From Thermodesulfovibrionales bacterium (GTDB lineage: Bacteria; Nitrospirota; Thermodesulfovibrionia; Thermodesulfovibrionales; UBA6898), in contig JBIOIY010000010.1 in assembly GCA_044450345.1 (NCBI GenBank), forward strand, positions 1 through 62,482: a stretch of DNA of 62,482 nt, given 5' to 3'. The notes under the pieces were generated by a model, which saw only the letters and a list, made by a program, of their open reading frames with translations, made no database searches and had not been told where the DNA came from. Position 1 is the stretch's first letter. Every line of letters begins with the position of its first letter. The translations under genes and the position numbers were made by a program. Shown one piece after another: positions 964 to 19,946 of this stretch.

Positions 964-980
964 TTATTCGACGCCCCTAC
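964..980 (-). repeat. GTAG-type REP half-site directly after the gspN stop
   Basis: Minus strand reads GTAGGGGCGTCGAATAA. The same GTAGGGGC...GCCCCTAC motif occurs at 38387-38408 and 50515-50541. Confidence 0.5.
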
Positions 981-1762
981 TAAAGCGGCAGTGCTCCGGT
1001 GATCGGGATCGAATAGTGTCCCGGCGAGTTTTTGTATTTTTCGAGAATGAGAAAGATGAAGTTGCTGTCTTTGAAAGATTTTTCCGGCATGAGTTCCATG
1101 ATCAGGTTCATCCCTCCTGAAGTGATTTCCCCGCTCAGCCTTGCATAAATACCTGCGCCCTCCAACGCAAAGGAAGTTATGCGGACCGAATTCCCCATAA
1201 CGGTCATGGCGCCCCGCGCGCTGGTGAACGCATCGAGCGGGATGGTGATACCCCCGAATGACCCCTGCCCGAATCGCGCATCCCTGACTTCGAACTTTAT
1301 ATCACCGCGGACATTTTCGATCTTCAGCGTTCCCGTGAGAGCACCTTTCCCGTCAATACCGAGGAGCGAAAAAAAAGGCATGTCCGCAATATCGGCACCG
1401 GCAACCGTAATATCTACGTGACTTTTCCCCCTGAATAGATCTATCGTCCCTTTTACCCTGCCGCCGCCGGTCTCGCCCCGGAAATGGGCATTCAACCGCA
1501 GAGTCAGGAGCGACAGGGGATTGATCCTGCCCGCGACGTTTTCTACCGACATCAGCGTCCTGTCGTTTTTCTTAAGCCGGATGCTGCCGCACGTAAAATC
1601 GAAAAAAATGCCTTTCCTGATATCCGACGTTTCGATGCGCATATCGCTGTCATGCATCGCCCCCTCGACCAGCCCTGCGAGCAGGGATTCGGGGATTGCT
1701 ATGACCCAGAGGCCGAATACGAAAATGACGATAACAAGGCAGACGATCAGGAAACGCTTCAC
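980..1762 (-). CDS. gspN: Type II secretion system protein N (deltaproteobacterial type)
   Basis: N-terminal TM helix, beta-rich periplasmic region and terminal IPITG motif. Last gene of the gsp operon; ATGA overlap with gspM. Confidence 0.8.
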   Translation of the reverse strand: MKRFLIVCLVIVIFVFGLWVIAIPESLLAGLVEGAMHDSDMRIETSDIRKGIFFDFTCGSIRLKKNDRTLMSVENVAGRINPLSLLTLRLNAHFRGETGGGRVKGTIDLFRGKSHVDITVAGADIADMPFFSLLGIDGKGALTGTLKIENVRGDIKFEVRDARFGQGSFGGITIPLDAFTSARGAMTVMGNSVRITSFALEGAGIYARLSGEITSGGMNLIMELMPEKSFKDSNFIFLILEKYKNSPGHYSIPITGALPL

Positions 1763-2271
1763 TTCGGGCTTAACTTCGGTTTGATAAGCCCGACCGTCAT
1801 CGTGACATTGAGGAGAGACGGGTTATCGAAAGAGGTCTTCATCGAGGTCTTTCTCACGGTGAGTATCATCGGCGCGTTCTCTATCCTGTAGAGGATGTTG
1901 ACCATCTCGTTCATCGTCACCTTCTCGACCGAGACCTCCGCCTCTTCTTCGGACGCGAATTTCTTTTCTCTTGTGCCGGTCGATTTTACTGACTTGACCT
2001 TCTGTCCCAACCCCATCGATTTAAATACCTCGTCCACCGCCTGGACTATGCCCTCCACCTTTGTAAGCGATCTCTTTCCTTCGACCGCGTCGACGGCGGT
2101 TTTCAATCCTGCGTATTCATTCGAGAGCGCAAGCATCTCCTCCTGCCGGGACCTGAGAGTGTACCGCTCCCGTTTCAGAGACAGTGAGACTTCAAACAGG
2201 ATGGCGCAGACAATGAACAGGAGGGCGATGACCGATATCGCGAGGATGTTTTTGTCTATCTTCAAGTTCAT
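1759..2271 (-). CDS. gspM: Type II secretion system protein M
   Basis: Single TM, coiled coil and ferredoxin-like C-terminal domain. Lies between gspL and gspN with 4-nt overlaps. Confidence 0.8.
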   Translation of the reverse strand: MNLKIDKNILAISVIALLFIVCAILFEVSLSLKRERYTLRSRQEEMLALSNEYAGLKTAVDAVEGKRSLTKVEGIVQAVDEVFKSMGLGQKVKSVKSTGTREKKFASEEEAEVSVEKVTMNEMVNILYRIENAPMILTVRKTSMKTSFDNPSLLNVTMTVGLIKPKLSPK

Positions 2272-3344
2272 GTCCTCCTTCCTCTAACGGTGAGGGTAAA
2301 GAGCGTCTTCCCCTGGACGGACGGTTTGGTGTCGGATATAGTTATTTCAGTAAATACCTTTTCCAGATCGGTCTTTGTCTTCTGGACATCGCTCATCGTA
2401 GGCGCCTCACCTTTCAATATGATAAGGTCCCTGTCCACTGTTATCTCGATGAATGATACGCCGGGTCTGCTTGCACCGCTCAAATCGAGAAGTGTATCGA
2501 GCGGGGATACGCCGACAAAGGAACTTTCTTTGTCCTTCAGTTCCTTCATATGGGCCTTGAGCTGGTAAAGCTCATTCGAGATCTTCCTTTCCGAGGGGAA
2601 GAGGCCCTGGTAGGTCTTTCGTATAGACTCCTTGATCGAGTCGTTTTCACGCTTTGTCGAAACGATGACCATGACGTTGTCAGCCAGGAAGATGAACAGC
2701 ACCAATACGACAAGTGCGGCGGTCATCATCAAGGACTTCTTCGTCCGCTCCGTGTCCGCGGTGTATGCGAACTCACCCCTTCTGAGGTTGACCGTCGGGT
2801 TCTTTATCTCGGCTACTGCGGCGCTGATGCGGTCCTTTTCCTCCAGGGGTTCCGGCGAGAGAAGCTTTCCTGCGATCTCCTCTGCAGAGGCTGATGAACT
2901 CACGGCATGCGCCAATTCAAGGGAAACGACCGCCTTGGGGTCGATGCCGGAGGCCTTGAGCCTGTTCAATATCGTGCGCAGGGTCTCCTTCCCGATATAG
3001 GCCACAAGGACCTGAGATTTTTCTTCACCGCGGCTGAGAATGAAGGCATCGAATGCAACGCTGCCCGAGCCGCCCAGGACGAGGTTGTCGATTTCAAAAG
3101 GGACGAGCTCTCTTACTTTCTTGATTTCGGAAAAGGGAAGTTCCAGGACCCTGAAGTCGAGGAGATTGAGAGGCAGGCTGAAGATGGACTCTCCGGCGCC
3201 GACTGGTTTATCAAAGGCAAAGGAATAATTTTCTTCAACGGGTATTGTGAAACTGCCCCCGGGTTGACCGTTTCTGCCGCCGTTATCAAAAGAATATACG
3301 GAGAGTTCCCGGCCTTTGAAGTCCAGGAAGACTGTCTTACTCAC
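2268..3344 (-). CDS. gspL: Type II secretion system protein L
   Basis: Cytoplasmic actin-like N-domain, NLRRGEF motif before the TM, PilN-like periplasmic domain, and operon position. Confidence 0.85.
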   Translation of the reverse strand: MSKTVFLDFKGRELSVYSFDNGGRNGQPGGSFTIPVEENYSFAFDKPVGAGESIFSLPLNLLDFRVLELPFSEIKKVRELVPFEIDNLVLGGSGSVAFDAFILSRGEEKSQVLVAYIGKETLRTILNRLKASGIDPKAVVSLELAHAVSSSASAEEIAGKLLSPEPLEEKDRISAAVAEIKNPTVNLRRGEFAYTADTERTKKSLMMTAALVVLVLFIFLADNVMVIVSTKRENDSIKESIRKTYQGLFPSERKISNELYQLKAHMKELKDKESSFVGVSPLDTLLDLSGASRPGVSFIEITVDRDLIILKGEAPTMSDVQKTKTDLEKVFTEITISDTKPSVQGKTLFTLTVRGRRT

Positions 3345-3392
3345 CTTGCGTCTTCCTTAAGTACAAAGACCATAAGAATGACAGATTTATTT

Positions 3393-3478: not shown

Positions 3479-4498
3479 CTACATCTCCTTCCAATATAGA
3501 ACTGAGTTGCCTTGAAGCACGCTTTCAATGATGCGCTTAATGCCGCCGGACTCGGCGGTCGCAACGACATGAAATGCGGTGCCGCTATATACTGCGTGTC
3601 CTGCCCCAAAGCCCACGCTGATGTCGGGGACCGCCTGTAGTGATGTCAAAGGTCTGTAGCTTATAATCCTTTCAGCCATATCCTCCGATGTATTTTCGGC
3701 AAGCGACATCAGCACCGGCACGTCTGCAGTGTTGACATTGATGCTAAAATTATTGTCGCCACTGCCGTATATTGTAACATAGGGCAGTAACTTGTCATAA
3801 CTCTCCCTGTCGATTCCGGGTATCAGGAGAAGTTCATCAACGCTATCGAGAAGTGCGTTCTTCGGCTGTATACTTGCGGCGTTCTGCGGCCTGCGGTCAG
3901 TGGAGGCATTGATCCAATAGGTGACCTTATTGGCGATATCCGGATCGAGATTAAGATTCCTGACGCGATTGAGATTTCTGATAAGATTGACGAAAAATGC
4001 TTGCCCCTCCGGGTTCCTCAGCGAATTCAAATTGAACTTCGCATTTTCATCCTCAATCCTGAGGGTTATCGTGCCGTCGAGATCGCCGAAGGGGATCTTC
4101 TGGCTCATCTCAAAGGCAGCCCTGGTTTTATACTGTTCAAGCATATTGCTGGTGATGAGCTTGGAAGCCAGTCTTGTCGCGGATTTTGCGGTGATGGAAA
4201 GCTTCTGAGAGGTTTGCCAGTTGTGAAGGGCATTTGTGTTTACGTATACGCCATAAGCAAACTCCACGACCATAGCTGTGATCAGCGCGACGATCATCAA
4301 GACGAGGACAAGGGCCATGCCGCTGCGATCGGTGAAAGGGGAGAGACTAAGACCCGTTTGTTTGTCATTCCGGCTTGTCGGGAATCTTTCTTCCGGAAGG
4401 ATTCCCGACCTGCCTACCGGACAGGCAGGCGCGCTTCGCTTGCGGGAATGACAAATACGTTTGGTCATACTACGGTACCTGTTCACCTTTTTTCTCAT
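3479..4498 (-). CDS. gspK: T2SS minor pseudopilin GspK with a 60-aa repeat-expanded leader
   Basis: SG|MALVLVL prepilin site (no E5, typical of GspK), DENAKFNLN, ELLLIPGI and INVNTA motifs. Start placed at the ATG at 4498 overlapping the gspJ TGA, not at 4630. Confidence 0.9.
   Translation of the reverse strand: MRKKVNRYRSMTKRICHSRKRSAPACPVGRSGILPEERFPTSRNDKQTGLSLSPFTDRSGMALVLVLMIVALITAMVVEFAYGVYVNTNALHNWQTSQKLSITAKSATRLASKLITSNMLEQYKTRAAFEMSQKIPFGDLDGTITLRIEDENAKFNLNSLRNPEGQAFFVNLIRNLNRVRNLNLDPDIANKVTYWINASTDRRPQNAASIQPKNALLDSVDELLLIPGIDRESYDKLLPYVTIYGSGDNNFSINVNTADVPVLMSLAENTSEDMAERIISYRPLTSLQAVPDISVGFGAGHAVYSGTAFHVVATAESGGIKRIIESVLQGNSVLYWKEM
4364..4452. repeat. Family A palindromic repeat inside the gspK leader, with a nested 21-bp palindrome at 4409-4429
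   Basis: GTCATTCCGGCTTGTCGGGAATC...GATTCCCGA[CCTGCCTACCGGACAGGCAGG]CGCGCTTCGCTTGCGGGAATGAC. Confidence 0.9.
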
Positions 4499-5100
4499 AT
4501 CGTATTGCCTATCTTCCGCCTGACCGTATCGAAAAAGCTGACCGGCCTGTCTTTGATCTTTGCGGTGATGGTGATCCTGATTTCGAGGGGTGGCTGCTTC
4601 GTCTCGGAGGTGTCCCATGTCTTCACCCATTTACTGCCGTCATTTACTTCGACTGAAAAAGATTCGAGCCCCTCGATCAGCTCTTCGCCCTTTGTAGTAT
4701 TGTCCGGTTTATAGGCACTATCCATTTTTTTAAAAAGTGTCAAGACCCCGTCTTTATCCTCGACATAATAAGAGATCATCACGATGCCGTAAGAAAGAGG
4801 GGAAAAGGCGGTAAAGGTGAACCGCGACGCCTGTTTGCCGTAAAAGTCCTTGTCTTCCACCTTCACAAGAGAACTCATGTTGCTGGACTTGTAGAGAATA
4901 GACTCGCCTTCCCTGGTCATAACGTCAATGGCCGTCCTGCATTCCTGGAGCTTCAGAAGCGATTCATCAAGCCCCGTCATGGCCTTGTGGGAAAGAAAGA
5001 AGGAGCCGTAAATAGCAGAGAGGATGATCGAAAAAAGGACCATTGCGATCAAGAGTTCGAGGAGGGTGAAGCCTTTCTCATCTCTGCAGGTCCTTTTCAT
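4495..5100 (-). CDS. gspJ: T2SS minor pseudopilin GspJ
   Basis: KG|FTLLELL N-methylation motif with a short 10-aa leader; C-terminal WVKTWD...PLEIRITI pattern. Confidence 0.9.
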   Translation of the reverse strand: MKRTCRDEKGFTLLELLIAMVLFSIILSAIYGSFFLSHKAMTGLDESLLKLQECRTAIDVMTREGESILYKSSNMSSLVKVEDKDFYGKQASRFTFTAFSPLSYGIVMISYYVEDKDGVLTLFKKMDSAYKPDNTTKGEELIEGLESFSVEVNDGSKWVKTWDTSETKQPPLEIRITITAKIKDRPVSFFDTVRRKIGNTI

Positions 5101-5516
5101 TTTGTCTTCCCGAGAAGTTTCGGCTTCTCGATAAGTTCGCTGAACTTCACATTTTCTTTCCCATTAACGACGGTGACTGAAAATTCAATAATACCCGGAT
5201 AGACAGAGTCCTTTACCTCGGTAGTGTAATGATATCGGGTGTAAGGATCGGGGAAATCGCCACTTGCAGACGCCGGACCCTTTTCAATCTCGATAAGCTT
5301 GCTCTTGGCGAGCATCGTCGCTATTGTGACAGTTTCATGTCTTTCGGCAATGGTGAGATGATAATTGAGTGAATAGAGAAGGGTGATGAGAAGGCCTCCC
5401 ACGATGGCGAGGGCCAGCATGACCTCAAGAAGGGTAAACCCTTCCTCTGTGAGACGTGAAACGTGAGACCTGCCTGCCGGACAGGCAGGCCTGAAACGTG
5501 GAGAGTCTGTTCTCAT
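5097..5516 (-). CDS. gspI: T2SS minor pseudopilin GspI with a 26-aa repeat-containing leader
   Basis: EG|FTLLEVMLALAI motif; ATGA overlap with the gspH stop fixes the start. Confidence 0.9.
   Translation of the reverse strand: MRTDSPRFRPACPAGRSHVSRLTEEGFTLLEVMLALAIVGGLLITLLYSLNYHLTIAERHETVTIATMLAKSKLIEIEKGPASASGDFPDPYTRYHYTTEVKDSVYPGIIEFSVTVVNGKENVKFSELIEKPKLLGKTK
5449..5500. repeat. GTGA(G/A)AC heptamer array with an inserted 21-bp palindrome (5469-5489) inside the gspI leader
   Basis: GTGAGAC GTGAAAC GTGAGAC [CTGCCTGCCGGACAGGCAGGC] CTGAAAC GTG. Confidence 0.85.
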
Positions 5517-6097
5517 TCCTGCTTTCCTTCCGCGATCTTTACCCTGCCGCTCACGGAACTTAAGGAAACAGTCATGTCCTTGTCCTCATCCCTGAGATGC
5601 ACTGCCAGGTTCTCCCGGATCCCGAGAGGTCCGAAGAATACCGTAACCTCTCCCTCTCTGATGTTGCCTTTAGAGGTCAGCGTAAGCGAGGCGAGGCTCT
5701 TCAGCCTTTCGGTCTTTTCACCGTCCGGACCCTGCCATGACAAGACGCCGTCGGGAAGGCTGAACTTCAGGGAATATATGTTCTTTGTCGCAACCGCATT
5801 ATCGTTGAGATACCTCAGGAGCGAGGCTGTTTTCCTCGCCTCTGCCTTTATCTTGTTGCCTGTGCCGAAAAAAGCAGGAACGACCAGCATCGCAAGCATG
5901 GAGATGATGAAGACCACTACGGCCAGCTCAAGAAGGGTAAACCCTGCGTTCCCGGAAGCCCGCATCGTGGCTAATTTGGGTTCGGACGGACCGACATTTT
6001 CTGAGCCTGTCATTCCCGCTTGTCGGGAATCCTTCTTTCGGATCTCGGAAAGATTGCGGACAAGCCGCAATGACAGCTCTTTGAGGCCGATGTCCAT
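5513..6097 (-). CDS. gspH: T2SS minor pseudopilin GspH (start at 6097 or alternatively 5965)
   Basis: AG|FTLLELAVV motif and C-terminal SSVSGRVKI; lies between gspG and gspI. Confidence 0.85.
   Translation of the reverse strand: MDIGLKELSLRLVRNLSEIRKKDSRQAGMTGSENVGPSEPKLATMRASGNAGFTLLELAVVVFIISMLAMLVVPAFFGTGNKIKAEARKTASLLRYLNDNAVATKNIYSLKFSLPDGVLSWQGPDGEKTERLKSLASLTLTSKGNIREGEVTVFFGPLGIRENLAVHLRDEDKDMTVSLSSVSGRVKIAEGKQE
6009..6074. repeat. Family A palindromic repeat (66 bp), in-frame within the extended gspH leader
   Basis: GTCATTCCCGCTTGTCGGGAATC...GATTGCGGACAAGCCGCAATGAC. Confidence 0.9.
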
Positions 6098-6160: not shown

Positions 6161-6616
6161 TTACTGCATGTCCCAACTTTTAATGTCCGCGTCTTTGCCT
6201 TCCCCGCCCTCTTTGCCGTCTCCGCCGTAGCTAAGGATATCGAAGTCTCCATGGACTCCGGGCGATACGTACATATAAGGGTTACCCCAGGGGTCAAGGG
6301 GGATCTTCTTCTGTTCGAGATATCCGCCCTCTCTGTATTTACCCGGGACTTGTCCCGTCGCAGGTTTTTCGATCAACGATTCGAGGCCCTGTTCAGTGGT
6401 AGGATAAAAACCGTTGTCGATCTTGAAGAGCTTGAGGGCGGTCTCGAAGTTTTTTATCTGGATTTTGGCGTCCGCTATCTTTGCATCGTCAGTCCGGCCC
6501 ATGATCTTCGGCGCGACGATCGCTACGAGGAGGCTCAGGATAAAGACTACGACTATTATTTCAAGAAGGGTGAAACCGGCCCGTGTGGACATTTTACCCG
6601 TAGTAATGCGTTTCAT
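6161..6616 (-). CDS. gspG: T2SS major pseudopilin GspG
   Basis: AG|FTLLEIIVV, DNGFYPTTEQGL, DPWGNPY and DILSYGGDGKEGGEGKDADI motifs. Confidence 0.97.
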   Translation of the reverse strand: MKRITTGKMSTRAGFTLLEIIVVVFILSLLVAIVAPKIMGRTDDAKIADAKIQIKNFETALKLFKIDNGFYPTTEQGLESLIEKPATGQVPGKYREGGYLEQKKIPLDPWGNPYMYVSPGVHGDFDILSYGGDGKEGGEGKDADIKSWDMQ

Positions 6617-6819: not shown

Positions 6820-7995
6820 TTATTTCACGAGTTGGTTCAACTGGAACATCGGCAGCAGCACGGCAAGCACGATAAACCCGACGACAATCCCCATGAGCAG
6901 GATCATAGAGGGTTCGAGCAACGCAAGCGCCTTCTGCACCCTCCGCTCGAAATCTTCTTCGTATGAATCGGCGGTCTTGCCTAACACTTCCACGAGAGAT
7001 CCGCTTTTTTCGCCCGTGGCGATCAACTGCAGAAGCACCGGCGGAAAACCTTCGAGCGAATGGGAAAGGCGAGCGCCTTCTGCCACTCCTTTTGCCGCCT
7101 GCCTGATCCTCTCCTCGATGACGATGTTGCCGGTCGATTTTGCGGAGAGTTCAAGCGATTTGAGCATCGGAAGTCCGCCTCCGAGGAGAAAACCGAGGGT
7201 CCTTGCGAACCTCCCGAAATAGAGACTCTGAAGGACATTGCCCGGGAGTTGTAGTTTCAACGCATCGAGATAACGGCCGTGTCTTTCGCGCAATCTCTTC
7301 ATCGCTGCGACCAATGCGACCGCCAGGATTATGAGAAGCCACCAGTAATTTACGAAGAGGTTGCTTATCTTGATAAGCACGACCGTAATGAAGGGCAGGG
7401 CGCTCTTGCTGTTTTCAAATATCTTCACGATCTTGGGAACGACGAAGGTGAAGAGGAAGGACATGACGACAAAGCCCACAGAGGCCATAAAAACCGGGTA
7501 GATCATTGCGGCGCGGAGCTTAGACCGTATCGACGCCTGTTTTTCGAGGAAGTCCGCGACCCTTATCAGCACCCTGTCGAGTGTCCCGCTCTGTTCTCCG
7601 GCCGCGACCATATTGATATAAAATTCAGGGAACAACTTAGGATGCGCTTCGAGCGCCCGGGATAGACTTGCGCCCGCAGCAACGTTCTCCCTTATCCCGA
7701 CTAATACGCCCTTCCAGAAGCCTCTGTTCTCATCGGAAAGGGACCGGAGCGCGTCGATCAAGGGGACACCCGAGGAGAGGAGTGTCGAAAGCTGTCTTGT
7801 GATGTAAGGGAGAAGCGTCGCGTCGTATTTCTTCGAGAGCCATCTGTTTTCTTTGTGGTGGAATGCGCCTACGTCTTTAGGGTATATGCCCCGGGCCTTG
7901 ATGGTCGCGATAGCGTCCTGGATACCGTCGGCCTCCAGGGTCCCCGCGGCCTGGGACCCGTCGGTCTTATATCCCTTATAATAGAAGATCGGCAT
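6820..7995 (-). CDS. gspF: T2SS inner-membrane platform protein GspF
   Basis: TRQLSTLLSSGVPL, AGEQSGTLD, MIYP and LLEP motifs; two T2SSF domains. Confidence 0.97.
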   Translation of the reverse strand: MPIFYYKGYKTDGSQAAGTLEADGIQDAIATIKARGIYPKDVGAFHHKENRWLSKKYDATLLPYITRQLSTLLSSGVPLIDALRSLSDENRGFWKGVLVGIRENVAAGASLSRALEAHPKLFPEFYINMVAAGEQSGTLDRVLIRVADFLEKQASIRSKLRAAMIYPVFMASVGFVVMSFLFTFVVPKIVKIFENSKSALPFITVVLIKISNLFVNYWWLLIILAVALVAAMKRLRERHGRYLDALKLQLPGNVLQSLYFGRFARTLGFLLGGGLPMLKSLELSAKSTGNIVIEERIRQAAKGVAEGARLSHSLEGFPPVLLQLIATGEKSGSLVEVLGKTADSYEEDFERRVQKALALLEPSMILLMGIVVGFIVLAVLLPMFQLNQLVK

Positions 7996-8009: not shown

Positions 8010-9539
8010 TCAGCCTTCGACGAGGTCTTTCTGCGTTACCCTCAGGACTTCTTCTACCGTAGTTATCCCCTTCAATACCTTTTCGAAGCCATCGTTTCTC
8101 AACGTCTTCATCCCGCCGGAAACGGCCGCACTCTTAATGCTCTGCGAGTCGATCTTGTCGGAAATCATCTGCCGTGTCGAATCGGTTATGATCAGCGTTT
8201 CAAAGATCGCGGTCCTTCCGAGATATCCCTTTCCCTGGCATTTATCGCAGCCCCTGCCTCGATATAAGGTAAAGGCGCCCCCACGAGGAGCATTTTCGAA
8301 ATAAGACCTCTCGATCTCTGAAGGGGTATAGGGTTCTTTACAATGAGGACAGATGACCCTCACCAACCTCTGTGCCAGGACCGCCATCAGAGACGAGGCA
8401 ACGAGGAAGGGCTCGACCCCCATGTCTATGAGCCTCACGATCGCGGAGGGCGCATCGTTCGTGTGAAGGGTGCTCAGCACGAGATGGCCGGTGAGAGACG
8501 CCTGGATAGCGATCTCGGCTGTTTCTACGTCCCTTATCTCTCCCACCATTATGACGTCGGGGTCCTGCCTGAGTATCGACCTGAGGCCAGATGCGAAGGT
8601 CAAGCCGATCTTCGGATTTACATGGATCTGCCCGACACCTTTCAACTGGTATTCGACCGGGTCCTCGACTGTGATGATGTTCTTCTCTTCGGTATGGACC
8701 CTGTTGAGTGCCGCATAAAGGGTAGTCGACTTGCCGCTTCCTGTGGGGCCTGTAACGAGTATGATGCCGTTCGTCCTCTTAAGGAGTTCTTCGAGACGCT
8801 TCTCGTCGGTTTCGTCCAGACCTACCTCCCAGAGCCCTATCAGGCCCTGTTTCCTGTCCAGGAGCCTGAGGACGGCGCGCTCCCCGAAGCTCGTGGGGAT
8901 CACCGACACCCTGATATCGATGTCCCGGCCGCCGATGAGGAGCCTTATCCTTCCGTCCTGCGGCAGCCTCTTCTCTGCAATATCGAGGTTCGACATGATC
9001 TTAACGCGGCTTATGAGTGCGTCCTGGATTATTTTTGGAGGAGTCAGCACACGGTGGAGTATCCCGTCGACCCTCATCCTCACGTCGAGTTCTTTTTCAT
9101 AGGGCTCGATATGGATATCGCTCGCCCGTTCCTTCACCGCCTGCTGGAGTATGGCGTTCAGGAGCCGGATGATCGGCGCATCCTCGGTAAGTTCCAGGAT
9201 GTCCTTCGGTTTTTCGAACTCTGTTGCAACGGACGAAAGGTCTTCGCCCGTGATATTGTCCATCACGTCCTCTGCCGATGAGCCGACCTGACCGTAGAAC
9301 CTGTTGATCGCATCTATGACCACCCCCGCCGAGGCACTGAGCGGCATCGGGGAAAGGCCGAAATGCCGCGACAATTCCCTGAGGGCGAGGACCCCTCTTT
9401 CGTCCGCGACGGCCGCTATCAGATGCCCGTTTTCCCTTCTGAGCGGCATGAGCATATTGGCCTTTGCATAAGAATGGGGGACTTCCTTGATGAGGGGATG
9501 CTCTACATCTTCGTCGTGAATGACCGTGATGGTTTCCAT
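8010..9539 (-). CDS. gspE: T2SS ATPase GspE
   Basis: ASDIHIEP, Walker A GPTGSGKS, LRQDPDVIMVGEIRD, TGHLVLSTLH and a tetracysteine motif. Confidence 0.98.
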   Translation of the reverse strand: METITVIHDEDVEHPLIKEVPHSYAKANMLMPLRRENGHLIAAVADERGVLALRELSRHFGLSPMPLSASAGVVIDAINRFYGQVGSSAEDVMDNITGEDLSSVATEFEKPKDILELTEDAPIIRLLNAILQQAVKERASDIHIEPYEKELDVRMRVDGILHRVLTPPKIIQDALISRVKIMSNLDIAEKRLPQDGRIRLLIGGRDIDIRVSVIPTSFGERAVLRLLDRKQGLIGLWEVGLDETDEKRLEELLKRTNGIILVTGPTGSGKSTTLYAALNRVHTEEKNIITVEDPVEYQLKGVGQIHVNPKIGLTFASGLRSILRQDPDVIMVGEIRDVETAEIAIQASLTGHLVLSTLHTNDAPSAIVRLIDMGVEPFLVASSLMAVLAQRLVRVICPHCKEPYTPSEIERSYFENAPRGGAFTLYRGRGCDKCQGKGYLGRTAIFETLIITDSTRQMISDKIDSQSIKSAAVSGGMKTLRNDGFEKVLKGITTVEEVLRVTQKDLVEG

Positions 9540-11762: not shown

Positions 11763-11768
11763 AGTCTA

Positions 11769-12688: not shown

Positions 12689-12696
12689 CGACTTTG

Positions 12697-12725
12697 AACA
12701 TAACAAAAATAGCGGAAGTTGTCAA
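12697..12725 (-). promoter_or_regulatory. sigma70 promoter of the gsp operon
   Basis: TTGACA (12725-12720), a 17-nt spacer, then extended -10 TG-T-TATGTT (12702-12697). Confidence 0.7.
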
Positions 12726-13108
12726 AAAATGATATCTTGACACGCCCTATAGACTGTGATAGTTTTTTGTTAAAAGTCGCCGTCTGTAAAGATTTTTTCG
12801 GCAGAGAAGGGCATAACGGTCTGCGCCATATGGCGTACGGACGATTTGAGCCACTGGGTCTTTTTCATGGTGCCTATTTAAGTTAAGGGTCTCATGATCC
12901 GATCTTTGATATGAAAAGGCCGTTGCTTCGTAATTCTTATGGGCATCGGAATACTTTGTCCGGTATCTGCCATGCCGGCTAATTGGAAAGAAATATTTTG
13001 CCGAAAGGAGGGAGATGGCGTTATGAGTGTCTCTCTTAGGGAAATGACATGACCGGTAACTTGCTTATTTGCAGTTAAACATTTATTGGGATTCGAAAGG
13101 AGGGCTAA

Positions 13109-14371
13109 ATGCGGTGTATCGTGCGAAAGTTGTTTATTGCATCTGTTGTCTTTTTGTCTTTTCTTCTCGTCTCAACCGCAGTTCATGCTGACCCGTTCAA
13201 ATTCTCGTCTTCCACACAATTTTTGTGGGGTGACGATCTGCTCGGAGATCGCTCGGCTGTCATCGCACAGTACCTTAGGTTCACTTTTGCCCCCGAGGGG
13301 AAGCCGTACTCTGTTACCGGCTACGGGCGGCTCTGGAAGGACCTGGGCAGTCCCGAGGTGAGAAGCGACGACTTCGAGACAAGGGTTTATTATCTCTATC
13401 TCGATTATGCGCTCTTGCCCAATGTCTCCACAAGGATAGGGAGGCAGTTCACGAATTTCACTGCGGGCACATCTATCATGGACGGCATCAGGCTGGATGT
13501 GAATAAAATCGGACCCGTGGGTGTGACTCTCGCCGGAGGAAGGGATGTCACCTTCAGCCTCGACGGAGAATACTCAAGGAACGGAAATAATTTTTTTGGG
13601 ATCGACATTCACCTGCAGGACGTGAAATCGACCCAGCTGGGATTCAGCTATATCAGAAGATACGACGAGTCAGACCTTGCGAGGGAAGAACTCGGCATGA
13701 ATTTCAGATATTTTCTTAAGTTTGCCAGCCCCTATGCGGAAGTGAAGTATGACCTGCTTTCGAAGGTCTTCGACGATGCGACGATCGGCGTCGATGTCTT
13801 CCCGCTGAGTAACCTGAAGGTGAAGGCGGAGTTCTATCATTCCTATCCGACCTTCGATTCTACGTCTATTTACAGCGTCTTTGCGGTCGACAAGTTCCGG
13901 GAATATCTGATACTCGCAGAGTACAATCTGGCGATCCCGGTGAGCGTCTTCGCTTCCTACAAACGCCAGACGTACGAGGAGGATACGAACGCCGATGTGT
14001 ACACGATCGGTGCAAGGGCGTATCCCAATGAGAAACTCAACCTGAATGCCTCGTTCGATTACAGGAGAGGCTACAGCGGCTATGCCTTTTTCCCCGCCAC
14101 CGGGGTGACGGAAACTGACGGAAAATTGTACGGGTTCGAACTTTCCGGAGATTACAAGCTCAGGAAAGAGATCATTGTCTTTGCGGGCATCCAGTACGAT
14201 ACGTACAACAGGCCGGACATCTCCGGGAACAACTATGCGCGGCGTTACTGGGCAGGCGGCCGCTGGATTGCCACAAAAAAGCTTTCTGTCACGGCACGGC
14301 TCGAGGACGACGACAACCCGAATTTTTCTCACAGAATTTTGGGCCGGGTTGCCCTGGACTGGAATCTATAA
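13109..14371 (+). CDS. Outer-membrane beta-barrel porin of a porin-cytochrome complex (OmbB/OmbC-like)
   Basis: Signal peptide (AVHA-D), alternating aromatic beta strands, RIGRQF motif and terminal LDWNL. Directly precedes multiheme cytochromes. Confidence 0.85.
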   Translation: MRCIVRKLFIASVVFLSFLLVSTAVHADPFKFSSSTQFLWGDDLLGDRSAVIAQYLRFTFAPEGKPYSVTGYGRLWKDLGSPEVRSDDFETRVYYLYLDYALLPNVSTRIGRQFTNFTAGTSIMDGIRLDVNKIGPVGVTLAGGRDVTFSLDGEYSRNGNNFFGIDIHLQDVKSTQLGFSYIRRYDESDLAREELGMNFRYFLKFASPYAEVKYDLLSKVFDDATIGVDVFPLSNLKVKAEFYHSYPTFDSTSIYSVFAVDKFREYLILAEYNLAIPVSVFASYKRQTYEEDTNADVYTIGARAYPNEKLNLNASFDYRRGYSGYAFFPATGVTETDGKLYGFELSGDYKLRKEIIVFAGIQYDTYNRPDISGNNYARRYWAGGRWIATKKLSVTARLEDDDNPNFSHRILGRVALDWNL

Positions 14372-14386: not shown

Positions 14387-15163
14387 ATGCTAAAAAAATT
14401 AATCATAATTATGACGATACTTTTTATATGCGGTTTTGCTATTACGGCGTGGTCTCTCACCTCGCATAAGGACTATTCCTCGATGGAGATCTCGGCATGC
14501 AACAGCTGCCATCAGTCGAACGGCGTGGCCCTGAATCACGGCCCCATGTGGGATAAAGAGCACAGACTCTATGCCAACAAGAAGCCTAATAATTGTCAGG
14601 ACTGCCATCAGCAGTCGTTCTGTCTCGATTGTCACCAAGGAGGCGGAATCGACGCCAACCTGCATTCATCGCAATCGGGACCCGATTACATGCCCAAGTC
14701 GCACCGGACCGATTTCAGGGAAATACACCCCATAAAGGCTAAGGAAAATCCGACTAGCTGCTATCGTTGCCATGACGCAAAGAGGTTCTGCCTGGAATGC
14801 CACAACAGGTTCAGCCCCAGCCAGCTTGCGATGGCTTCTCACAGGAGACAGTTCAGCGACATTAACCTCAAGTCGGTTGGTCCGAACCACACAATATTTA
14901 GCACTGAACAGTGTCCGACGTGCCATCCGAACAGCCTCGTCCCGACTCATCAGTGGTCTGCCGACCACGCGAGGGAGGCCAGGCGGAACCTGTCCACATG
15001 CCAGACATGCCATCCCGAGGGTGACGTATGCATGAAATGCCACAGCGCAGCCACGGGTTTGAAGGTGAACCCTCATCCGAGGAATTGGAGCGGCATTAAA
15101 GGCCGTCTCGGGAGTGCGAGCAACAACAGGTCGTGCTTAAAGTGCCATATCACGGTGCCGTAA
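14387..15163 (+). CDS. Periplasmic nonaheme c-type cytochrome (OmaB/OmaC-like)
   Basis: Signal peptide and nine CxxCH motifs (CNSCH, CQDCH, CLDCH, CYRCH, CLECH, CPTCH, CQTCH, CMKCH, CLKCH) in 258 aa. Confidence 0.92.
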   Translation: MLKKLIIIMTILFICGFAITAWSLTSHKDYSSMEISACNSCHQSNGVALNHGPMWDKEHRLYANKKPNNCQDCHQQSFCLDCHQGGGIDANLHSSQSGPDYMPKSHRTDFREIHPIKAKENPTSCYRCHDAKRFCLECHNRFSPSQLAMASHRRQFSDINLKSVGPNHTIFSTEQCPTCHPNSLVPTHQWSADHAREARRNLSTCQTCHPEGDVCMKCHSAATGLKVNPHPRNWSGIKGRLGSASNNRSCLKCHITVP

Positions 15164-15196
15164 GTGATTGCGAAAACTAAAGGAGGTAGAGATAAA

Positions 15197-17461
15197 ATGC
15201 CACGAACATCCAAAAAGGAGGGCAAAATGATTAAGTCGTCTCGAATCGTTACCGGCTCACTATTTCTTCTTATGGCATTATTTGCGTTGAACGGTTGCGG
15301 AAGCGGGCACCATGAAGGAGTGGAGAGCCCCCTCGGGTCTGCGACAAAGGTAGGGTCTGAAAGCTGTACTAACACGTGTCACGCCGACACAAAAGACATC
15401 ACGGGCAATAAGATTGCCGCGGTTTGGGCTGCTACCACCCATACCACGTCAGGCGGCGTGCAGTGCGAGGATTGTCATGGACCGGCCAGCCTGCACTGGG
15501 GCGTCGGCCCGATACTGTTTCCGGACCCTCAGGCTGCGCAGTGTAACGTTTGCCACGGCAAGACAGGCTTTGACGCTACAGCCCATGCGAACGCGCATAT
15601 CCCCGGCGGCTTCTTCGGCCCCGACAGTTTCTTCTTCCAGGGGGACGCCGGCACGGGTCCTGCCGATATCAGAGGCGTTCCTGAATTCCTGCCTGACGGC
15701 ATCACCCCTGTGACAAAGGCTCAGCATATCCAGGAATGCTCCGCATGCCACAATCCGAACGAAAGGTTCACTTTTAATATCGACGGGACTCTTACGAAGC
15801 CCGATCCGAACAACATGCCGAACCCTGTCGTCTCATGCGCTTCCTGTCACGATGCACACCAGCCTGAGCAAAGGGTTGCTATAGCACAGCGCGCCTCTGT
15901 GCAGGTTCCGATCTTCCGGAAGTTCTTTGTCAATGCCACCGGAGAGCAAAGCTTCGTTGCAGACCCATCAACAGGGAAAGAAAGTGCGACGGCCACCTCT
16001 TCACAACTTGCGGCCTCGCTATTTCAGCCTAACGGCGCGGTCCAGCTGAACGGCAGCGTGGACATGACTAAGGTCATCGGGACGAATAACGAACTGAACA
16101 TCCAGCGCCTCTGTGCCTCATGTCACACTGTGGGGAAATACTTATACAGTCAGACTGCGACACATCAGAACGACACCTATACGCAGTGGGCAAACTCAGC
16201 CCACGGCACGATGAGCGATCCCGCCTTTGCCGAGTTTTCGGCAAACCCACCTGCCTATATCAATCCCTTTACCGGGACCCCGTATGCTGCGGGTGGCCAC
16301 CAGAGTCTATGGCCCTATGATATGGCTTTTAGTGGAGGCGCCTCGTTCAACGGGCCGGGCAAGGTTGGCGCAACCGCAAGCACATCCCAGAATGCAGGGT
16401 TTGGAGGAACCAATGACAATTTTGCCTGCTACAGATGCCATAACGGGGTCGCTTCTATAGCATTCCAGCTGAATATCCAGGGGACGCCTGCCGCCCCCGT
16501 GATCTTCGGTGATGAAGCCGTGGTGTGTATCACCTGCCATGACCCTCACCAGAACTACCCCGGACAGACCTTGAACGTCCGGCAGCCGGTGATGATGACC
16601 AATTATTCGTCAACTTCCATTACTATCCAGGGTAATGTCTTCCTTGACAATACCCCTGTCCCGTTGGATAAGACAGGAAACGGCACGATCTGCATTTTCT
16701 GTCATCAGGGTCGGGAGAGTGGTCTTACCCTTTATGCCACGAAACTTGCCGCCGGCAAGAAGATCACTGGAAATTTCTTCAATCCTCATTATCTCGGCAC
16801 TGCAGCAATGATCTGGGGCGTCAATGCCTATGAATACGCGGGTCAATTATACAGCGCCAATGTGGCCCATCAGGGTGCAAACTGCCCGACCTGTCATATG
16901 AACAATCCGACAGCGGACAATCTTAATGGTGGCCATACCTGGACCCCGAATGTAGCGTCCTGCAATGTCTCATCCTGTCATGGAAGTTTTGGTGCGGTGA
17001 GCGCAAAAGCCGCCTCCCAGAGTCCCGACGTCGCGACGTACAGGGCCAGTTTCGACACGAACAACTATACGGGCGATGCCAACGGGGCTTCCCTGTCTAT
17101 AGCCAATTCGATACGGGTGCTCCAGCAGAAGGTGATCGCGGTGCTAAATACAAAGGGGATATTCTACAACGACCTGGTGTATCCTTACTTCTTTAGCGAT
17201 GCGGCATCAACGACAGCCTTTACTGCCTGGACACCTGCAACTTACAAGGCGGCCTTCAATATCTCCTTTGCTGTGAAGGGGCTCCCTTCCGCGGCAACCT
17301 CACAGGCCAACGTGCCGAATAATTCTGCAGCGGTGCACGACTATAAGTACATCATTCAGGTTCTGCAGGACGGATATGCTGACCTGACAGGCGCTCCTCT
17401 TGCGGGCGCTTTCAGACCTGCAGGGACACGGCCCGCGACTGTCTACGGCCCGGGTCAGTAA
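15197..17461 (+). CDS. Outer-membrane lipoprotein multiheme cytochrome, OmcB/OmcC-like, copy 1 (start 15197 or 15227)
   Basis: Lipobox LNGC; 9 CxxCH plus CTNTCH and CNVSSCH. The N-terminal pattern VG...C..CH...CEDCHG...H.GVGPI resembles Geobacter OmcB as I recall it. Confidence 0.88.
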   Translation: MPRTSKKEGKMIKSSRIVTGSLFLLMALFALNGCGSGHHEGVESPLGSATKVGSESCTNTCHADTKDITGNKIAAVWAATTHTTSGGVQCEDCHGPASLHWGVGPILFPDPQAAQCNVCHGKTGFDATAHANAHIPGGFFGPDSFFFQGDAGTGPADIRGVPEFLPDGITPVTKAQHIQECSACHNPNERFTFNIDGTLTKPDPNNMPNPVVSCASCHDAHQPEQRVAIAQRASVQVPIFRKFFVNATGEQSFVADPSTGKESATATSSQLAASLFQPNGAVQLNGSVDMTKVIGTNNELNIQRLCASCHTVGKYLYSQTATHQNDTYTQWANSAHGTMSDPAFAEFSANPPAYINPFTGTPYAAGGHQSLWPYDMAFSGGASFNGPGKVGATASTSQNAGFGGTNDNFACYRCHNGVASIAFQLNIQGTPAAPVIFGDEAVVCITCHDPHQNYPGQTLNVRQPVMMTNYSSTSITIQGNVFLDNTPVPLDKTGNGTICIFCHQGRESGLTLYATKLAAGKKITGNFFNPHYLGTAAMIWGVNAYEYAGQLYSANVAHQGANCPTCHMNNPTADNLNGGHTWTPNVASCNVSSCHGSFGAVSAKAASQSPDVATYRASFDTNNYTGDANGASLSIANSIRVLQQKVIAVLNTKGIFYNDLVYPYFFSDAASTTAFTAWTPATYKAAFNISFAVKGLPSAATSQANVPNNSAAVHDYKYIIQVLQDGYADLTGAPLAGAFRPAGTRPATVYGPGQ

Positions 17462-17486
17462 TAACGTAGTAGTGTAATTTCGTAAC

Positions 17487-17519
17487 GGGGCCCCGGAGTA
17501 ATCCGGGGCCCTCTTTTTT
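17487..17519 (+). terminator. Intrinsic terminator after cytochrome 1
   Basis: GGGGCCCCGGA-GTAA-TCCGGGGCCCT followed by a T run. Confidence 0.85.
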
Positions 17520-17521
17520 CG

Positions 17522-17548
17522 GTGCGCCCGGCATGGGCGCATGCTTGG
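17522..17548 (+). mobile_element. 5' stub of a group IIC intron
   Basis: GTGCGCCCGGCATGGGCGCA matches the class C group II intron 5' end. It lies right after an intrinsic terminator, the known IIC target. No RT ORF or domain V was seen. Confidence 0.65.
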
Positions 17549-17723
17549 TCTGAGTCGTGTCTTAATGCACCGGCGCCGGACCCGGACCCAAAAAACCCAG
17601 CTTAATTTTTTTCTACCCCTTTTTTGCAGAATATTTATAATATATGCCTGGACTTGTTTTGGATTATGAAAGGTAGATTCTGAAGAGGTCACATAATGGA
17701 TAACTTTTTTATGAGGAGGGAAT

Positions 17724-19946
17724 ATGCGTAAACTGTATCGTTTACTCGGATTAGGGCTATTGGTCGGCTTATCTCTTCTGACCGGCTGCGGCGGAGGAGG
17801 AGGGGGCCAGCCTTCGACTGCGACGAGGGTCGGCTCTGCCACGTGCACAAATACATGCCATGCGTTCACCAAGGATATCACCGGCACGCAGATAGCTGTC
17901 GCCTGGGCCAATACTACTCATACCACCGACGGCAAGGTCCAGTGTGAGGACTGTCACGGCGCGGGAAGCCTGCACAGGGGAGTGGGAACTATCCCTTATC
18001 CAAACCCGCATGCTGCCCAGTGCGAAGTTTGTCATACGGATAAAAAAGGGTTTGACAGCACGTTCCATGCGAACTCGAATCCTTATAACGGTACAAACCC
18101 CAGTTCTTTTACAGGACCTGACAAGTTCTTCTTCCAGGGAGATGCCTTGAACAGCGGTACCGCCGAGATAATGAGTAAACCTGAATTCCTTCCCGACGGC
18201 ATTACTCCGGTAACGCATGCGCAGCATATCGAGGAATGTTCCCGCTGCCACAACCCGAACCAGCGTTTTGAATACAGCTATGCTGATGGGAGCGGGCCTC
18301 TGATTATGCCTGACCCTAATAACATGCCGGACCCGCCGAATATCACCTGTGCGGGCTGTCATGACGCTCATCAGCCTGAAACCAAGGTACCTATCGCTCA
18401 AAGAAACGACCCGGTGGCTTATCCAGTCTACCGGAAATTTTTTGTCAACCCCACCGGCGAGCAAAACGATAACGTCCCTGGGACGCAGCTTGCCGCCTCG
18501 ATCTACCAGCCCAACGGCGCTGTCCAGCAGGACGGATCGGTGGACATATCGAAGGTCGTCGGAACGAATAACGAGCTTAATATAGAGCTTCTCTGTGCCG
18601 CGTGCCATACGAAAGGGAAATATAAATACAGTCAGCTATCGACACATCAGAACGATGTTTATACAGAATGGAAGAACTCCGGACATGGGAATCGGAATGC
18701 CCCGGCGTTTGCCGAGTTTTCAGCCAACCCGCCCGCTTACACCAATCCTAATACCGGGATCCCGTACGCTGCGGGCGGTCACCAGAGTCTATGGCCCTAT
18801 GATATGGCTTTTAGTGGAGGCGCCTCGTTCAACGGGCCGGGCAAGGTAGGTGCAACCGCAAATACATCCCGGAATGCGGGGTTTGGCGGAACTAATGACA
18901 ATTATCCCTGCTACAGATGTCATAACGGGGTTGGATCTATCGCATTCCAGATGAATATCCAGGGGACGCCTTCCGCGCCGGTGGTTTTTGGCGATGAGCC
19001 TGTGGTATGTATTACCTGCCATGACCCGCACCAGGACTACCCCGGACAATCCAAGAACGTCCGGCAGCCGGTGATGATGACCAATTATTCGACAAGTTCC
19101 ATCACGATCCAGGGAAATGTCTTCCTCGACAAAACTCCCGTGCCGCTCGCCCAGACCGGCAACGGCACTATCTGCATCTTCTGTCATCAGGGCAGGGAGA
19201 GTGGCCTGACACTTTATGCCACGAAACTTGCCGCAGGCAAGACGATTACTGGAAATTTCTTCAATCCTCACTATCTCGGCACTGCAGCAATGCTCTGGGG
19301 AGTCAATGCCTATGAGTACTCGGGTCAGTTTTATAGCGCCAATGCGGCCCATCAGGGTGCAAACTGCCCGACCTGTCATATGAGCAATCCGACAGCAGAC
19401 AACCAAAACGGCGGCCATACGTGGAAACCGAATGTAGCGACCTGCAATGTCTCATCCTGTCACGGAGGAAGTTTAGGAAAGGTGGGCGTTCAAGCAGGTT
19501 CCGCGAGCCCGGATGTGGCAAGCTACAGGGCAAGCTCCGACACGAATAACTATACCGGCGATGCCAACGGGGCTTCGCTGTCTATAGCCGATTCAATCCG
19601 GGTGCTCCAGCAGAAGGTCATCGCAGTACTCCAGACCAAGGGGATCTTCTACAACGACCTGGTGTATCCTTATTTCTTTAGCGATGCGGCATCAACGACG
19701 ACCTTTACTGCCTGGACACCTTCTACGTACAAGGCAGCATTCAACCTCTCTTTTGCAGTGAAGGGACTCCCCTCCGCTGCAACCTCACAGGCCAACGTGC
19801 CGAATAATTCTGCCGCCGTTCATGACTATAAATACATTATCCAGCTCCTGCAGGACGGCCTTGCAGACTTGGGGGTACCTCTTCCCTCGAGTGCCGTCAG
19901 GCCTCTGGGGATACGGCCTGCGACTGTTTACGGCCCGGGTCAGTAA
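17724..19946 (+). CDS. Outer-membrane lipoprotein multiheme cytochrome, OmcB/OmcC-like, copy 2
   Basis: SD GAGGAGGG, lipobox LTGC, 9 CxxCH plus CTNTCH and CNVSSCH. Collinear paralog of copy 1, also ending in RPATVYGPGQ. Confidence 0.9.
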   Translation: MRKLYRLLGLGLLVGLSLLTGCGGGGGGQPSTATRVGSATCTNTCHAFTKDITGTQIAVAWANTTHTTDGKVQCEDCHGAGSLHRGVGTIPYPNPHAAQCEVCHTDKKGFDSTFHANSNPYNGTNPSSFTGPDKFFFQGDALNSGTAEIMSKPEFLPDGITPVTHAQHIEECSRCHNPNQRFEYSYADGSGPLIMPDPNNMPDPPNITCAGCHDAHQPETKVPIAQRNDPVAYPVYRKFFVNPTGEQNDNVPGTQLAASIYQPNGAVQQDGSVDISKVVGTNNELNIELLCAACHTKGKYKYSQLSTHQNDVYTEWKNSGHGNRNAPAFAEFSANPPAYTNPNTGIPYAAGGHQSLWPYDMAFSGGASFNGPGKVGATANTSRNAGFGGTNDNYPCYRCHNGVGSIAFQMNIQGTPSAPVVFGDEPVVCITCHDPHQDYPGQSKNVRQPVMMTNYSTSSITIQGNVFLDKTPVPLAQTGNGTICIFCHQGRESGLTLYATKLAAGKTITGNFFNPHYLGTAAMLWGVNAYEYSGQFYSANAAHQGANCPTCHMSNPTADNQNGGHTWKPNVATCNVSSCHGGSLGKVGVQAGSASPDVASYRASSDTNNYTGDANGASLSIADSIRVLQQKVIAVLQTKGIFYNDLVYPYFFSDAASTTTFTAWTPSTYKAAFNLSFAVKGLPSAATSQANVPNNSAAVHDYKYIIQLLQDGLADLGVPLPSSAVRPLGIRPATVYGPGQ

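Follow-up and report, generated by a model that had tools for sequence, protein, structure and literature searches.

The outer-membrane conduit OmbB-OmaB-OmcB of Geobacter has been isolated as a heterotrimer with 20 hemes and carries electrons through the membrane of liposomes (Liu et al., PMC4282303). Porin-cytochrome conduits (Pcc) of this kind are recognised by a triad of genes in the order porin-like barrel, periplasmic multiheme cytochrome and outer-membrane multiheme cytochrome of the c type (c-Cyt); their cytochromes are allowed 1-16 heme motifs by Liu et al. (PMC4282303). In Geobacter metallireducens, the clusters Gmet0908-0910 and Gmet0911-0913 have the order barrel (20 predicted strands), periplasmic 9-heme c-Cyt and outer-membrane c-Cyt; deletion of Gmet0908-0910 lowers ferrihydrite reduction, and this cluster is induced in co-culture with a methanogen (PMC11389400). 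The MtrCAB system of Shewanella likewise joins a porin to a periplasmic multiheme and a surface lipoprotein multiheme cytochrome. Shewanella gspD and gspE mutants lose MtrC and OmcA from the surface, and MtrC/OmcA constitute the only system in which a Gsp type II secretion system (T2SS) is known to display such cytochromes (PMC1974784). The present analysis concerns a stretch of 62,482 nucleotides (the window, G000:C10:1-62482, which begins at a contig end) from a bacterium of the Thermodesulfovibrionales, in which a gsp T2SS operon stands back to back with genes for a barrel protein, a 9-heme cytochrome (CytA) and two 11-motif outer cytochromes (CytB and CytC). The locus is probably a Geobacter-type Pcc beside the general-purpose canonical T2SS of its lineage, the neighbourhood reflecting inherited gene order and the T2SS being no part of the conduit. 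To our knowledge, the gsp and mtr genes of Shewanella have not been reported as neighbours.

The initial annotation of the window had placed a gsp operon beside a porin/9-heme/2x11-heme cluster of OmbB/OmaB/OmcB type, in a lineage judged probably to be Nitrospirota. The gene content was borne out by the open reading frames (ORFs) together with Pfam and NCBIfam profiles, and the cluster has the gene order of the Pcc triad. The barrel protein aligns over its full length with the Pcc barrels that head 8-heme/12-heme clusters in Geobacteraceae, including those of Geobacter sp. OR-1, Geotalea sp. SG265, Geomonas and Pelotalea (33-40% identity, E 1e-70 to 1e-90). A wide scan, in which an alignment of barrel proteins was run against one genome per species, gave 78 loci. 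The barrel gene is directly followed by a cytA homologue in 75 of these, in several phyla, the other three stopping at a contig edge, and a large multiheme gene comes next wherever the sequence continues. In loci of Geobacter, Geotalea, Geomonas, Pelotalea and Desulfuromonadaceae the barrel is joined by an 8-heme protein of ~230 amino acids (aa; ~42% identity) and by a 12-heme protein (~700-820 aa), the set of three genes often occurring twice in tandem; this is the ombB-omaB-omcB layout described by Liu et al. (PMC4282303). CytA itself aligns over 256 residues, at 57% identity, with a 259-aa G. metallireducens GS-15 cytochrome that has nine CXXCH motifs and that, from its heme count and length and without recourse to a locus tag, would be Gmet0909. 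Eight heme motifs of the CytA family are invariant in all 50 aligned homologues, and the ninth lies in an insert of ~25 residues in the 9-heme forms. The comparison with Geobacter runs through the Geobacteraceae loci and the GS-15 cytochrome.

The outer cytochromes belong to a different subfamily from OmcB. CytC has 195 homologues at E <= 1e-20, among them a 'cytochrome c, 11 heme-binding sites' of Geotalea daltonii (51% identity) and a protein of Geotalea sp. SG265 (55%), and its Atlas look-alikes are labelled '11 heme-binding sites' family, at 0.97, and 'OmcB family', at 0.96. Among 16 close homologues every one of the 11 motifs recurs in 15 or more, and the lipobox Cys is invariant in 20 of 20 sequences. 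CytB and CytC show 21-31% identity to the 12-heme proteins of other loci; with this distance, and with 11 motifs against 12, they were rejected as OmcB orthologues. Since 1-16 motifs are allowed in Pcc, the 11 motifs set the outer protein apart from OmcB and not from the Pcc kind. The homology of the barrel, CytA and CytC, together with the layout, therefore makes the cluster a member of the Pcc kind with an outer cytochrome from an 11-heme subfamily, so that the initial OmbB/OmaB/OmcB label holds as Pcc homology, beyond mere layout, and fails for the outer cytochromes. The count of 11 motifs in each outer cytochrome was also kept, the motif types being corrected to nine CX2CH, one CX3CH (CTNTCH) and one CX4CH (CNVSSCH) in both proteins.

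Comparison with the described systems sharpens this placement. The locus shares with OmbB-OmaB-OmcB the three-part design, the gene order and the eight alignable periplasmic heme motifs, and its tandem of outer cytochromes recalls OmcB/OmcC; it differs in a periplasmic protein with nine hemes rather than eight, in outer proteins of another subfamily with 11 motifs rather than 12, and in having no OrfR/OrfS. No OrfR/OrfS-type regulator gene was found in the spacer of 402 bp before the barrel gene, upstream of which gspC is found instead. Gmet0908-0910 is matched in order and in the 9-heme periplasmic protein, whereas the outer cytochrome of the window has 11 motifs and is duplicated, and in contrast to the window none of the Geobacteraceae loci examined has an adjoining T2SS. 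The likeness to MtrCAB is one of design, without sequence relation, and the barrel of 420 aa is far smaller than MtrB, for which 28 strands are predicted (PMC4282303). Homology to MtrA, MtrB or MtrC was not found: the Pfam matches were to generic heme domains (35-40 bits), and TIGR03508 (DmsE/MtrA) scored 16.8-36 against a cut-off of 192. A sequence search of the PDB returned no match for the barrel or CytC (E <= 1-10), only chance-level matches for CytA (E 0.08-1) and no Mtr chain. The barrel protein has an Atlas model of pTM 0.78 with beta-barrel neighbours. A Pcc barrel is expected to have 18-22 predicted strands; a crude, uncalibrated alternation scan of the alignment gave a tentative figure of ~19 segments.

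The minus-strand genes encode a canonical Gsp system. Twelve co-directional genes in the order gspN-M-L-K-J-I-H-G-F-E-D-C were called with Pfam and NCBIfam profiles, the curated or equivalog cut-offs of NCBIfam serving as thresholds (Table 1). GspD, E, G, K, L and N exceed their NCBIfam equivalog cut-offs, GspC falls 0.4 bits and GspF 30 bits short, and H, I, J and M are sub-threshold; the core set of a canonical Gsp T2SS, GspC to GspM with GspN, is thus present in one operon. The gspM candidate, called mainly from its position, is 70% identical to its counterpart in a relative (L024). The longest gspK ORF overlaps gspJ by 136 nt, and the true start of gspK is therefore probably further in. 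A prepilin peptidase (GspO/PilD) is encoded outside the operon (G000:C1:80442-80792, PF01478 80.1 bits). GspD has an extra C-terminal domain (residues 653-732; window 9567-9806, minus strand) of the fervidolysin N-terminal prodomain family PF22148 (71.2 bits), which two relatives encode also as a separate ORF of ~80-93 aa; GspD is ~735-770 aa long in relatives and ~640-700 aa in Geobacteraceae.

This operon had been considered the only T2SS of the genome, one other secretin being known at 31% identity, and that view was rejected on finding a second T2SS-like cluster with a secretin on contig C5. The cluster (G000:C5:62985-71111, L144:8986-17112) encodes a GspE-like ATPase (681 bits, over the cut-off), a GspF-like protein (401 bits), GspI-like and other prepilins, and GspK-like, PilM-like and weakly GspC-like proteins. 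The secretin lies 20 kb from it among glycosyltransferase and TPR genes (C5:83788-86004, L145:9789-12005) and scores 385 bits, over the GspD cut-off. The C5 cluster may be the counterpart of the atypical Pul/Oxp system of Geobacter, which Mehta et al. 2006 are said to have implicated in the reduction of insoluble acceptors. Pul/Oxp resembles the window in placing a T2SS-kind machine next to multiheme cytochrome genes; the window system differs in being a canonical Gsp (GspD/E/G/K/L/N over their cut-offs) and in lying beside a Pcc, not beside OmcE-like cytochromes.

Loss of the gsp-pcc adjacency in relatives had been named beforehand as an outcome that would refute a linked module. Among near kin this outcome did not arise, the adjacency being found in 11 of the 13 Pcc-bearing relatives. 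The near-kin set comprised the 40 nearest genomes and the host assembly (G000), 41 in all, of which 14 have the Pcc barrel, seven an 11-heme cytochrome at 56% identity or more, and 32 a close relative of GspD (46-89% identity over most of its length); 18 of these 32 have no Pcc. The divergent neighbour of the Pcc is gspC in G001-G007, G013, G016, G017 and G022, with an 11-heme gene between gspC and the barrel gene in G002 and G005, and the T2SS lies on a different contig from the Pcc in G024 and G028. The operon of G022 is split by ~5.6 kb inserted between gspC and gspD (L032:9683-15285), gspC still adjoining the Pcc. On the other flank, the Pcc is followed by moeA, a formyltransferase-like gene and a deacetylase (moeA-fmt-pda), as in the window, wherever both sides are readable (L056, L057, L058, L063, L064, L074 and L083), and the Pcc-moeA link is kept in four loci with the T2SS elsewhere (L066, L067, L069 and L075). 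As the moeA-fmt-pda flank is equally syntenic, nothing singles out the gsp side. The contig L037 of G019 has the appearance of an empty site, in which moeA ends at 8174 and gspC starts at 8198, the two genes diverging across 24 nt that leave no room for a Pcc; G019, an assembly with 6% contamination and two gsp operons, yielded no Pcc barrel at all. In wider relatives with sequence beyond gspC, its neighbour is neither moeA nor a Pcc.

The wider distribution of the adjacency is narrow. A T2SS adjoins 12 of the 78 wide-scan loci, all Nitrospirota/Thermodesulfovibrionales, and in a tree of the 78 barrel proteins the 12 adjacent rows, including that of the window, fall in a single clade of 25 (SH-aLRT 97). 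This clade further holds 11 non-adjacent rows, one of which is the second of two tandem Pcc clusters, and two rows that could not be assessed; the tree requires at least four changes of state. Of the other loci open to assessment, 52 from Geobacteraceae, Nitrospinales and further Nitrospirota, not one shows the adjacency; gspE/F-like genes ~7 kb downstream of the Pcc of a Desulfuromonadaceae locus (L108) were taken as coincidence.

In the arrangement that these observations suggest, the 420-aa barrel would sit in the outer membrane, the 9-heme CytA would enter it from the periplasm, and one of the two paralogous 11-heme lipoprotein cytochromes would cap it on the outside; that the proteins form a complex, pass electrons, are exposed at the surface or make use of the T2SS is here reasoned from work on Geobacter and Shewanella. 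The minus-strand genes would constitute the canonical, general-purpose Gsp T2SS of the lineage. Both would adjoin because one sub-clade of the Thermodesulfovibrionales fixed the local order gsp, pcc, moeA-formyltransferase-deacetylase a single time and passed it on, the Pcc lying in a slot that gspC and moeA flank. The lipoprotein cytochromes may well travel to the surface through the T2SS, as in Shewanella, as a property of the cell that adjacency does not show. A machine dedicated to the export of the Pcc, as proposed initially, is possible but unsupported: close GspD relatives occur in 18 genomes that have no Pcc, the L037 site is empty, the Pcc-moeA link persists without the T2SS, adjacency is restricted to one porin clade, and a second T2SS-like cluster is present on C5.

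Several observations weigh against inherited neighbourhood as the whole explanation. A GspD-family secretin is present in every Pcc-bearing genome examined. Among the near kin, close GspD was found in 14 of 14 genomes with a Pcc and in 18 of 27 without (Fisher one-sided p = 0.013), and in the other Pcc genomes GspD exceeded the family cut-off in 38 of 38. A third set, an even sample of 301 genomes of the phylum, has GspD at E <= 1e-90 in 124 (121 over the cut-off), comprising all 20 of the barrel-positive genomes and 104 of the 281 others (p = 7e-9, Fisher); within one large family (f22) the same pattern gives p = 0.08. These are raw tests that ignore relatedness, made on three overlapping genome sets, and four of the 20 barrel matches in the phylum sample are weak (E 1e-21 to 1e-28). 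The co-occurrence is compatible with a requirement for a T2SS, as in Shewanella, is confounded by phylogeny, and is silent on which of the two systems of G000 would serve. The adjacency spans at least five genus-level groups, with barrel identity down to 57%, and the arrangement is therefore stable. A conserved block in the spacer could permit joint control of gsp and pcc. The identity of the cluster as a conduit itself rests on homology.

The spacer was given initially as ~420 bp; it measures 402 bp between the longest ORFs and ~420 bp when gspC is begun at its first ATG. Its gspC-proximal end is conserved, the block GTCAAAAAA being invariant in eight of eight aligned spacers and CTTGACA...TGTGATA kept in six of the eight, and it contains two TTGACA-like hexamers back to back (Table 1) which may be promoter elements of the two directions, judging from their sequence. 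The minus-strand promoter-like site scores 10/12, with a TG extension, and an AGGAGG ribosome-binding site lies 5' of the barrel gene. A scan of the spacer with the promoter consensus showed no enrichment (8 sites against 6.8 +/- 2.5 in shuffles), and an Rfam scan of window positions 1-24000 gave no matches, so that the leader of ~350 nt is without a known RNA element. In two relatives (L062:9394-10000 and L074:9411-10000) the spacer holds a gene for a monoheme class-I cytochrome c of 114-119 aa, of which no remnant was found in the window or in G000. With this gene in two relatives and the 11-heme gene between gspC and the barrel gene in two others, the spacer architecture is not fixed.

These data allow a doubtful alternative in which the gsp T2SS and the Pcc form one functional unit, diverging from one control region, the T2SS being required for display of the 11-heme cytochromes and selection keeping the genes adjacent. 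Such a module would account for adjacency in 11 of the 13 Pcc-bearing relatives and 12 of the 78 wide-scan loci, for the conserved spacer block with its back-to-back -35-like hexamers, and for the consistent presence of a GspD-family secretin beside a Pcc, and it has a precedent in the need of MtrC and OmcA for GspD/GspE (PMC1974784); the lipobox Cys, invariant in 20 of 20 outer cytochromes, fits it as well. It is opposed by the T2SS being equally conserved in the 18 Pcc-less relatives, by the empty gspC/moeA site, by a moeA-fmt-pda flank just as syntenic as the gsp side, by the lack of an independent second origin of adjacency among the 52 assessable loci, by the variable spacer and by the C5 cluster, which could do the same job. 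A still bolder proposal, judged distinctly unlikely, is that Pcc occur only in cells with a Gsp-type secretin, the T2SS being the obligatory surface route, and that the Ca. Sulfobium clade has fixed this dependence in one locus, transcribed divergently from back-to-back promoters 11 bp apart, as the first natural coupling of a canonical T2SS to a Geobacter-type conduit. An inherited gene order, with the T2SS outside the conduit, is preferred to either.

The direction of electron flow is a separate matter from the linkage. By analogy with Geobacter, the default is a flow out of the cell, to Fe(III), Mn(IV) or humics, and the characterised Pcc complexes have all been studied as outward conduits in the sources cited (PMC4282303, PMC11389400). 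Tentatively, the Pcc might instead serve interspecies transfer, take in electrons from Fe(II), Fe(0), reduced humics or a syntrophic partner for sulfate reduction, or serve sulfide oxidation with Fe(III) reduction; with uptake or sulfide oxidation it would be no classical outlet of Fe(III) respiration. The host has dsrA, and DsrAB with a Pcc is the gene set proposed for sulfide-driven Fe(III) respiration in Desulfurivibrionaceae (PMC12545173); it has a Cyc2-like gene on contig C12, and in Thermodesulfovibrionia Cyc2 has been described as oxidising Fe(II) (preprint 10.64898/2026.03.26.714105); and Gmet0908-0910, the nearest cluster to have been studied, has been linked both to ferrihydrite reduction and to electron transfer between species (PMC11389400). 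The direction is, however, set by nothing in the sequence. It is highly improbable that the locus is no device for extracellular electron transfer, with the barrel an ordinary diffusion porin and the cytochromes acting on soluble substrates in the periplasm or outer membrane, or with the cluster silent. That view could appeal to the lack of an experimental record for Nitrospirota Pcc and to the barrel's sole Pfam match, the generic Porin_4; against it stand the 75 of 78 loci, of several phyla, in which the gene next after that of the barrel encodes the periplasmic cytochrome, the conserved heme motifs and lipobox, the intact reading frames with ribosome-binding sites and terminators, and direct homology to Geobacter clusters without which Fe(III) reduction is impaired (PMC4282303, PMC11389400).

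Table 1. Features of the locus and of the remaining window, with positions in the window and profile scores (NCBIfam or Pfam cut-offs in brackets)
Feature	Position	Strand	Properties
gspN (Leptospira-type)	980-1762	-	TIGR04411 126.7 bits (50)
gspM candidate	1759-2271	-	NF041618 22.7 bits, below cut-off; between gspL and gspN
gspL	2268-3344	-	TIGR01709 70.8 bits (65); Pfam GspL_C
gspK	3479-4630	-	NF037980 149.3 bits (130), match from residue 103
gspJ-like minor pseudopilin	4495-5100	-	N_methyl 38.3 bits; T2SSJ 26.2 bits (28)
gspI-like minor pseudopilin	5097-5516	-	prepilin N-methylation motif; TIGR01707 39 bits (44.35)
gspH-like minor pseudopilin	5513-6097	-	prepilin motif; TIGR01708 32.9 bits, below cut-off
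gspG, major pseudopilin	6161-6616	-	TIGR01710 171.3 bits (88.85)
gspF, platform protein	6820-7995	-	Pfam T2SSF 219.2 bits; TIGR02120 394.5 bits (424)
gspE, ATPase	8010-9539	-	TIGR02533 704.2 bits (630.25)
gspD, secretin	9546-11762	-	TIGR02517 531.3 bits (351.35)
gspC (HR domain and PDZ)	11819-12706; first ATG 12688	-	PF11356 (T2SSC) 52.5 bits (27); NF041515 149.6 bits (150)
Divergent spacer	12707-13108	.	between gspC and the barrel gene
TTGACA-like hexamers, back to back	12720-12725 (-) and 12737-12742 (+)		11 bp apart, one per direction
TGTGATAGT	12755-12763		in the divergent spacer
Barrel protein, OmbB-like, porin-like	13109-14371	+	420 aa; signal peptide; no heme motif; Porin_4 28.6 bits
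cytA, predicted periplasmic 9-heme cytochrome (OmaB/Gmet0909-like)	14387-15163	+	258 aa; 9 CXXCH
cytB, 11-motif lipoprotein, predicted outer cytochrome	15164-17461; probable start 15227	+	lipobox LNGC; 765 aa (744 from the likelier start)
Terminator-like hairpin after cytB	17487-17512	+	11-pair stem, then T run
cytC, 11-motif lipoprotein, predicted outer cytochrome	17724-19946	+	lipobox LTGC; 740 aa
Terminator-like hairpin after cytC	19976-19995	+	near-identical to the hairpin after cytB
hemH	29117-30166		
hemY-like oxidase	30154-31524		
hemB	46163-47134		

The two outer cytochromes of the window are close paralogues. CytB and CytC are 78% identical overall, at ~65% in the first 350 residues and ~87% beyond, and this likeness, with the near-identical hairpins behind both genes, points to a tandem duplication that took in the terminator. 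The mosaic identity suggests that the N-terminal heme domains diverged, or were exchanged, after the genes had been duplicated. The reading frames of the cluster are intact, with ribosome-binding sites and terminators. In the closest relative, whose barrel protein is 92% identical (L021, G004:C10:1124000-1143999), the orthologue of cytB is split into four pieces and that of gspD into two, while cytC and the remaining genes are intact; the broken genes may be pseudogenes or assembly frameshifts.

The host is a Candidatus Sulfobium-like, dsrA-bearing Nitrospirota bacterium with many other multiheme cytochromes. Its 3.19-Mb assembly consists of 86 contigs, with a completeness of 91% and a contamination of 1.9%. 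The closest named records to the barrel protein are metagenome-assembled genomes (MAGs) titled Nitrospirae/Nitrospiraceae, Thermodesulfovibrionales or 'Candidatus Sulfobium', at 92% to ~57% identity, which agrees with the lineage first proposed. DsrA scores 540.6 bits, over the cut-off, 32 ORFs have at least three CXXCH motifs, and cytochrome maturation is of System II, with two further CcsA-like genes. Three pairs of a multiheme cytochrome (13, 13 and 7 CXXCH) and a cytochrome b561-type membrane protein are present (C16:2370-4759, C2:48347-50506 and C6:69515-72041), the C6 set having in addition a 9-heme protein built of c7-type units, and these are candidate quinol-to-periplasm modules. Contigs other than that of the window also encode a NapC-like 10-heme protein and an NrfD/FeS/tetraheme set, and all of these could feed the conduit. 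The Cyc2-like protein (G000:C12:18214-19794, L134:3215-4795) has 527 aa; it begins with a monoheme cytochrome c domain, and its long C-terminal part bears a weak likeness to the Pcc barrel (25% identity), in the manner of a fused cytochrome-porin; its gene is followed 3' by genes for a 5-CXXCH protein and a cupredoxin/CHRD protein. With this gene the host has more than one outer-membrane redox device.

Searches bearing on expression and export gave little. The sequencing runs with the locus comprised soil and peat DNA runs (shares <=0.34) and no RNA run, which is evidence in neither direction. Slam (PF04575) had no match in G000 and none in the control genomes, hence the result is uninformative. 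We know of no secretion signal for T2SS substrates.

Elsewhere in the window, the heme-biosynthesis genes to which the initial annotation drew attention are present as hemH, a hemY-like gene and hemB. They lie 9-26 kb from the cytochrome cluster with unrelated genes between, and for both reasons they were rejected as part of a module. Just upstream of hemH and the hemY-like gene (25700-29120) there is a gene for a second MoeA, a 644-aa fusion with a periplasmic-binding-protein-like domain, and after it one for a RACo-type activator of 508 aa, so that the window holds two moeA genes. A Gp49/HigB-like gene overlapping an HTH gene (39704-40370, minus strand) is likely a toxin-antitoxin pair. In the ~980 bp between the contig end and gspN (1-979) no ORF reaches 80 aa, and Rfam gave no match.

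In the literature, Shi et al. 2014 described pcc clusters in Geobacter and six other phyla, and a term search of that text found neither Nitrospirae nor type II secretion (PMC4245776). He et al. 2017 reported no OmbB-type Pcc in Fe(II) oxidisers, in the passages cited (PMC5566968). A term search of the paper naming Ca. Sulfobium was without hits for multiheme, porin, c-type or secretion (PMC5812927), and Danczak et al. 2019 described, in general terms, multiheme profiles like those of iron reducers in Nitrospirae MAGs (PMC6730927). Neither a Pcc-T2SS adjacency nor a Pcc of Ca. Sulfobium was found in open-licence papers and preprints, and the supplementary tables of Liu 2014 (Table S2) and Shi 2014 may list related clusters.

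Gene content, homology, motif conservation and the distribution of synteny can be read directly from the genomes. In paddy soils, peat and groundwater, Ca. Sulfobium-like Nitrospirota live as sulfate reducers, and a complete Geobacter-type conduit in the outer membrane would allow them to exchange electrons with iron minerals, humics or partner cells. The cryptic sulfur cycle would thereby be coupled to the turnover of iron and carbon. The locus offers a concrete and cheap test case for the route that brings Geobacter-type outer cytochromes to the cell surface; the co-occurrence pattern and the conserved divergent control region make the link to secretion worth testing. Should that link fail, the locus would be an ordinary Pcc in a new host, a little-studied sulfate-reducing lineage.

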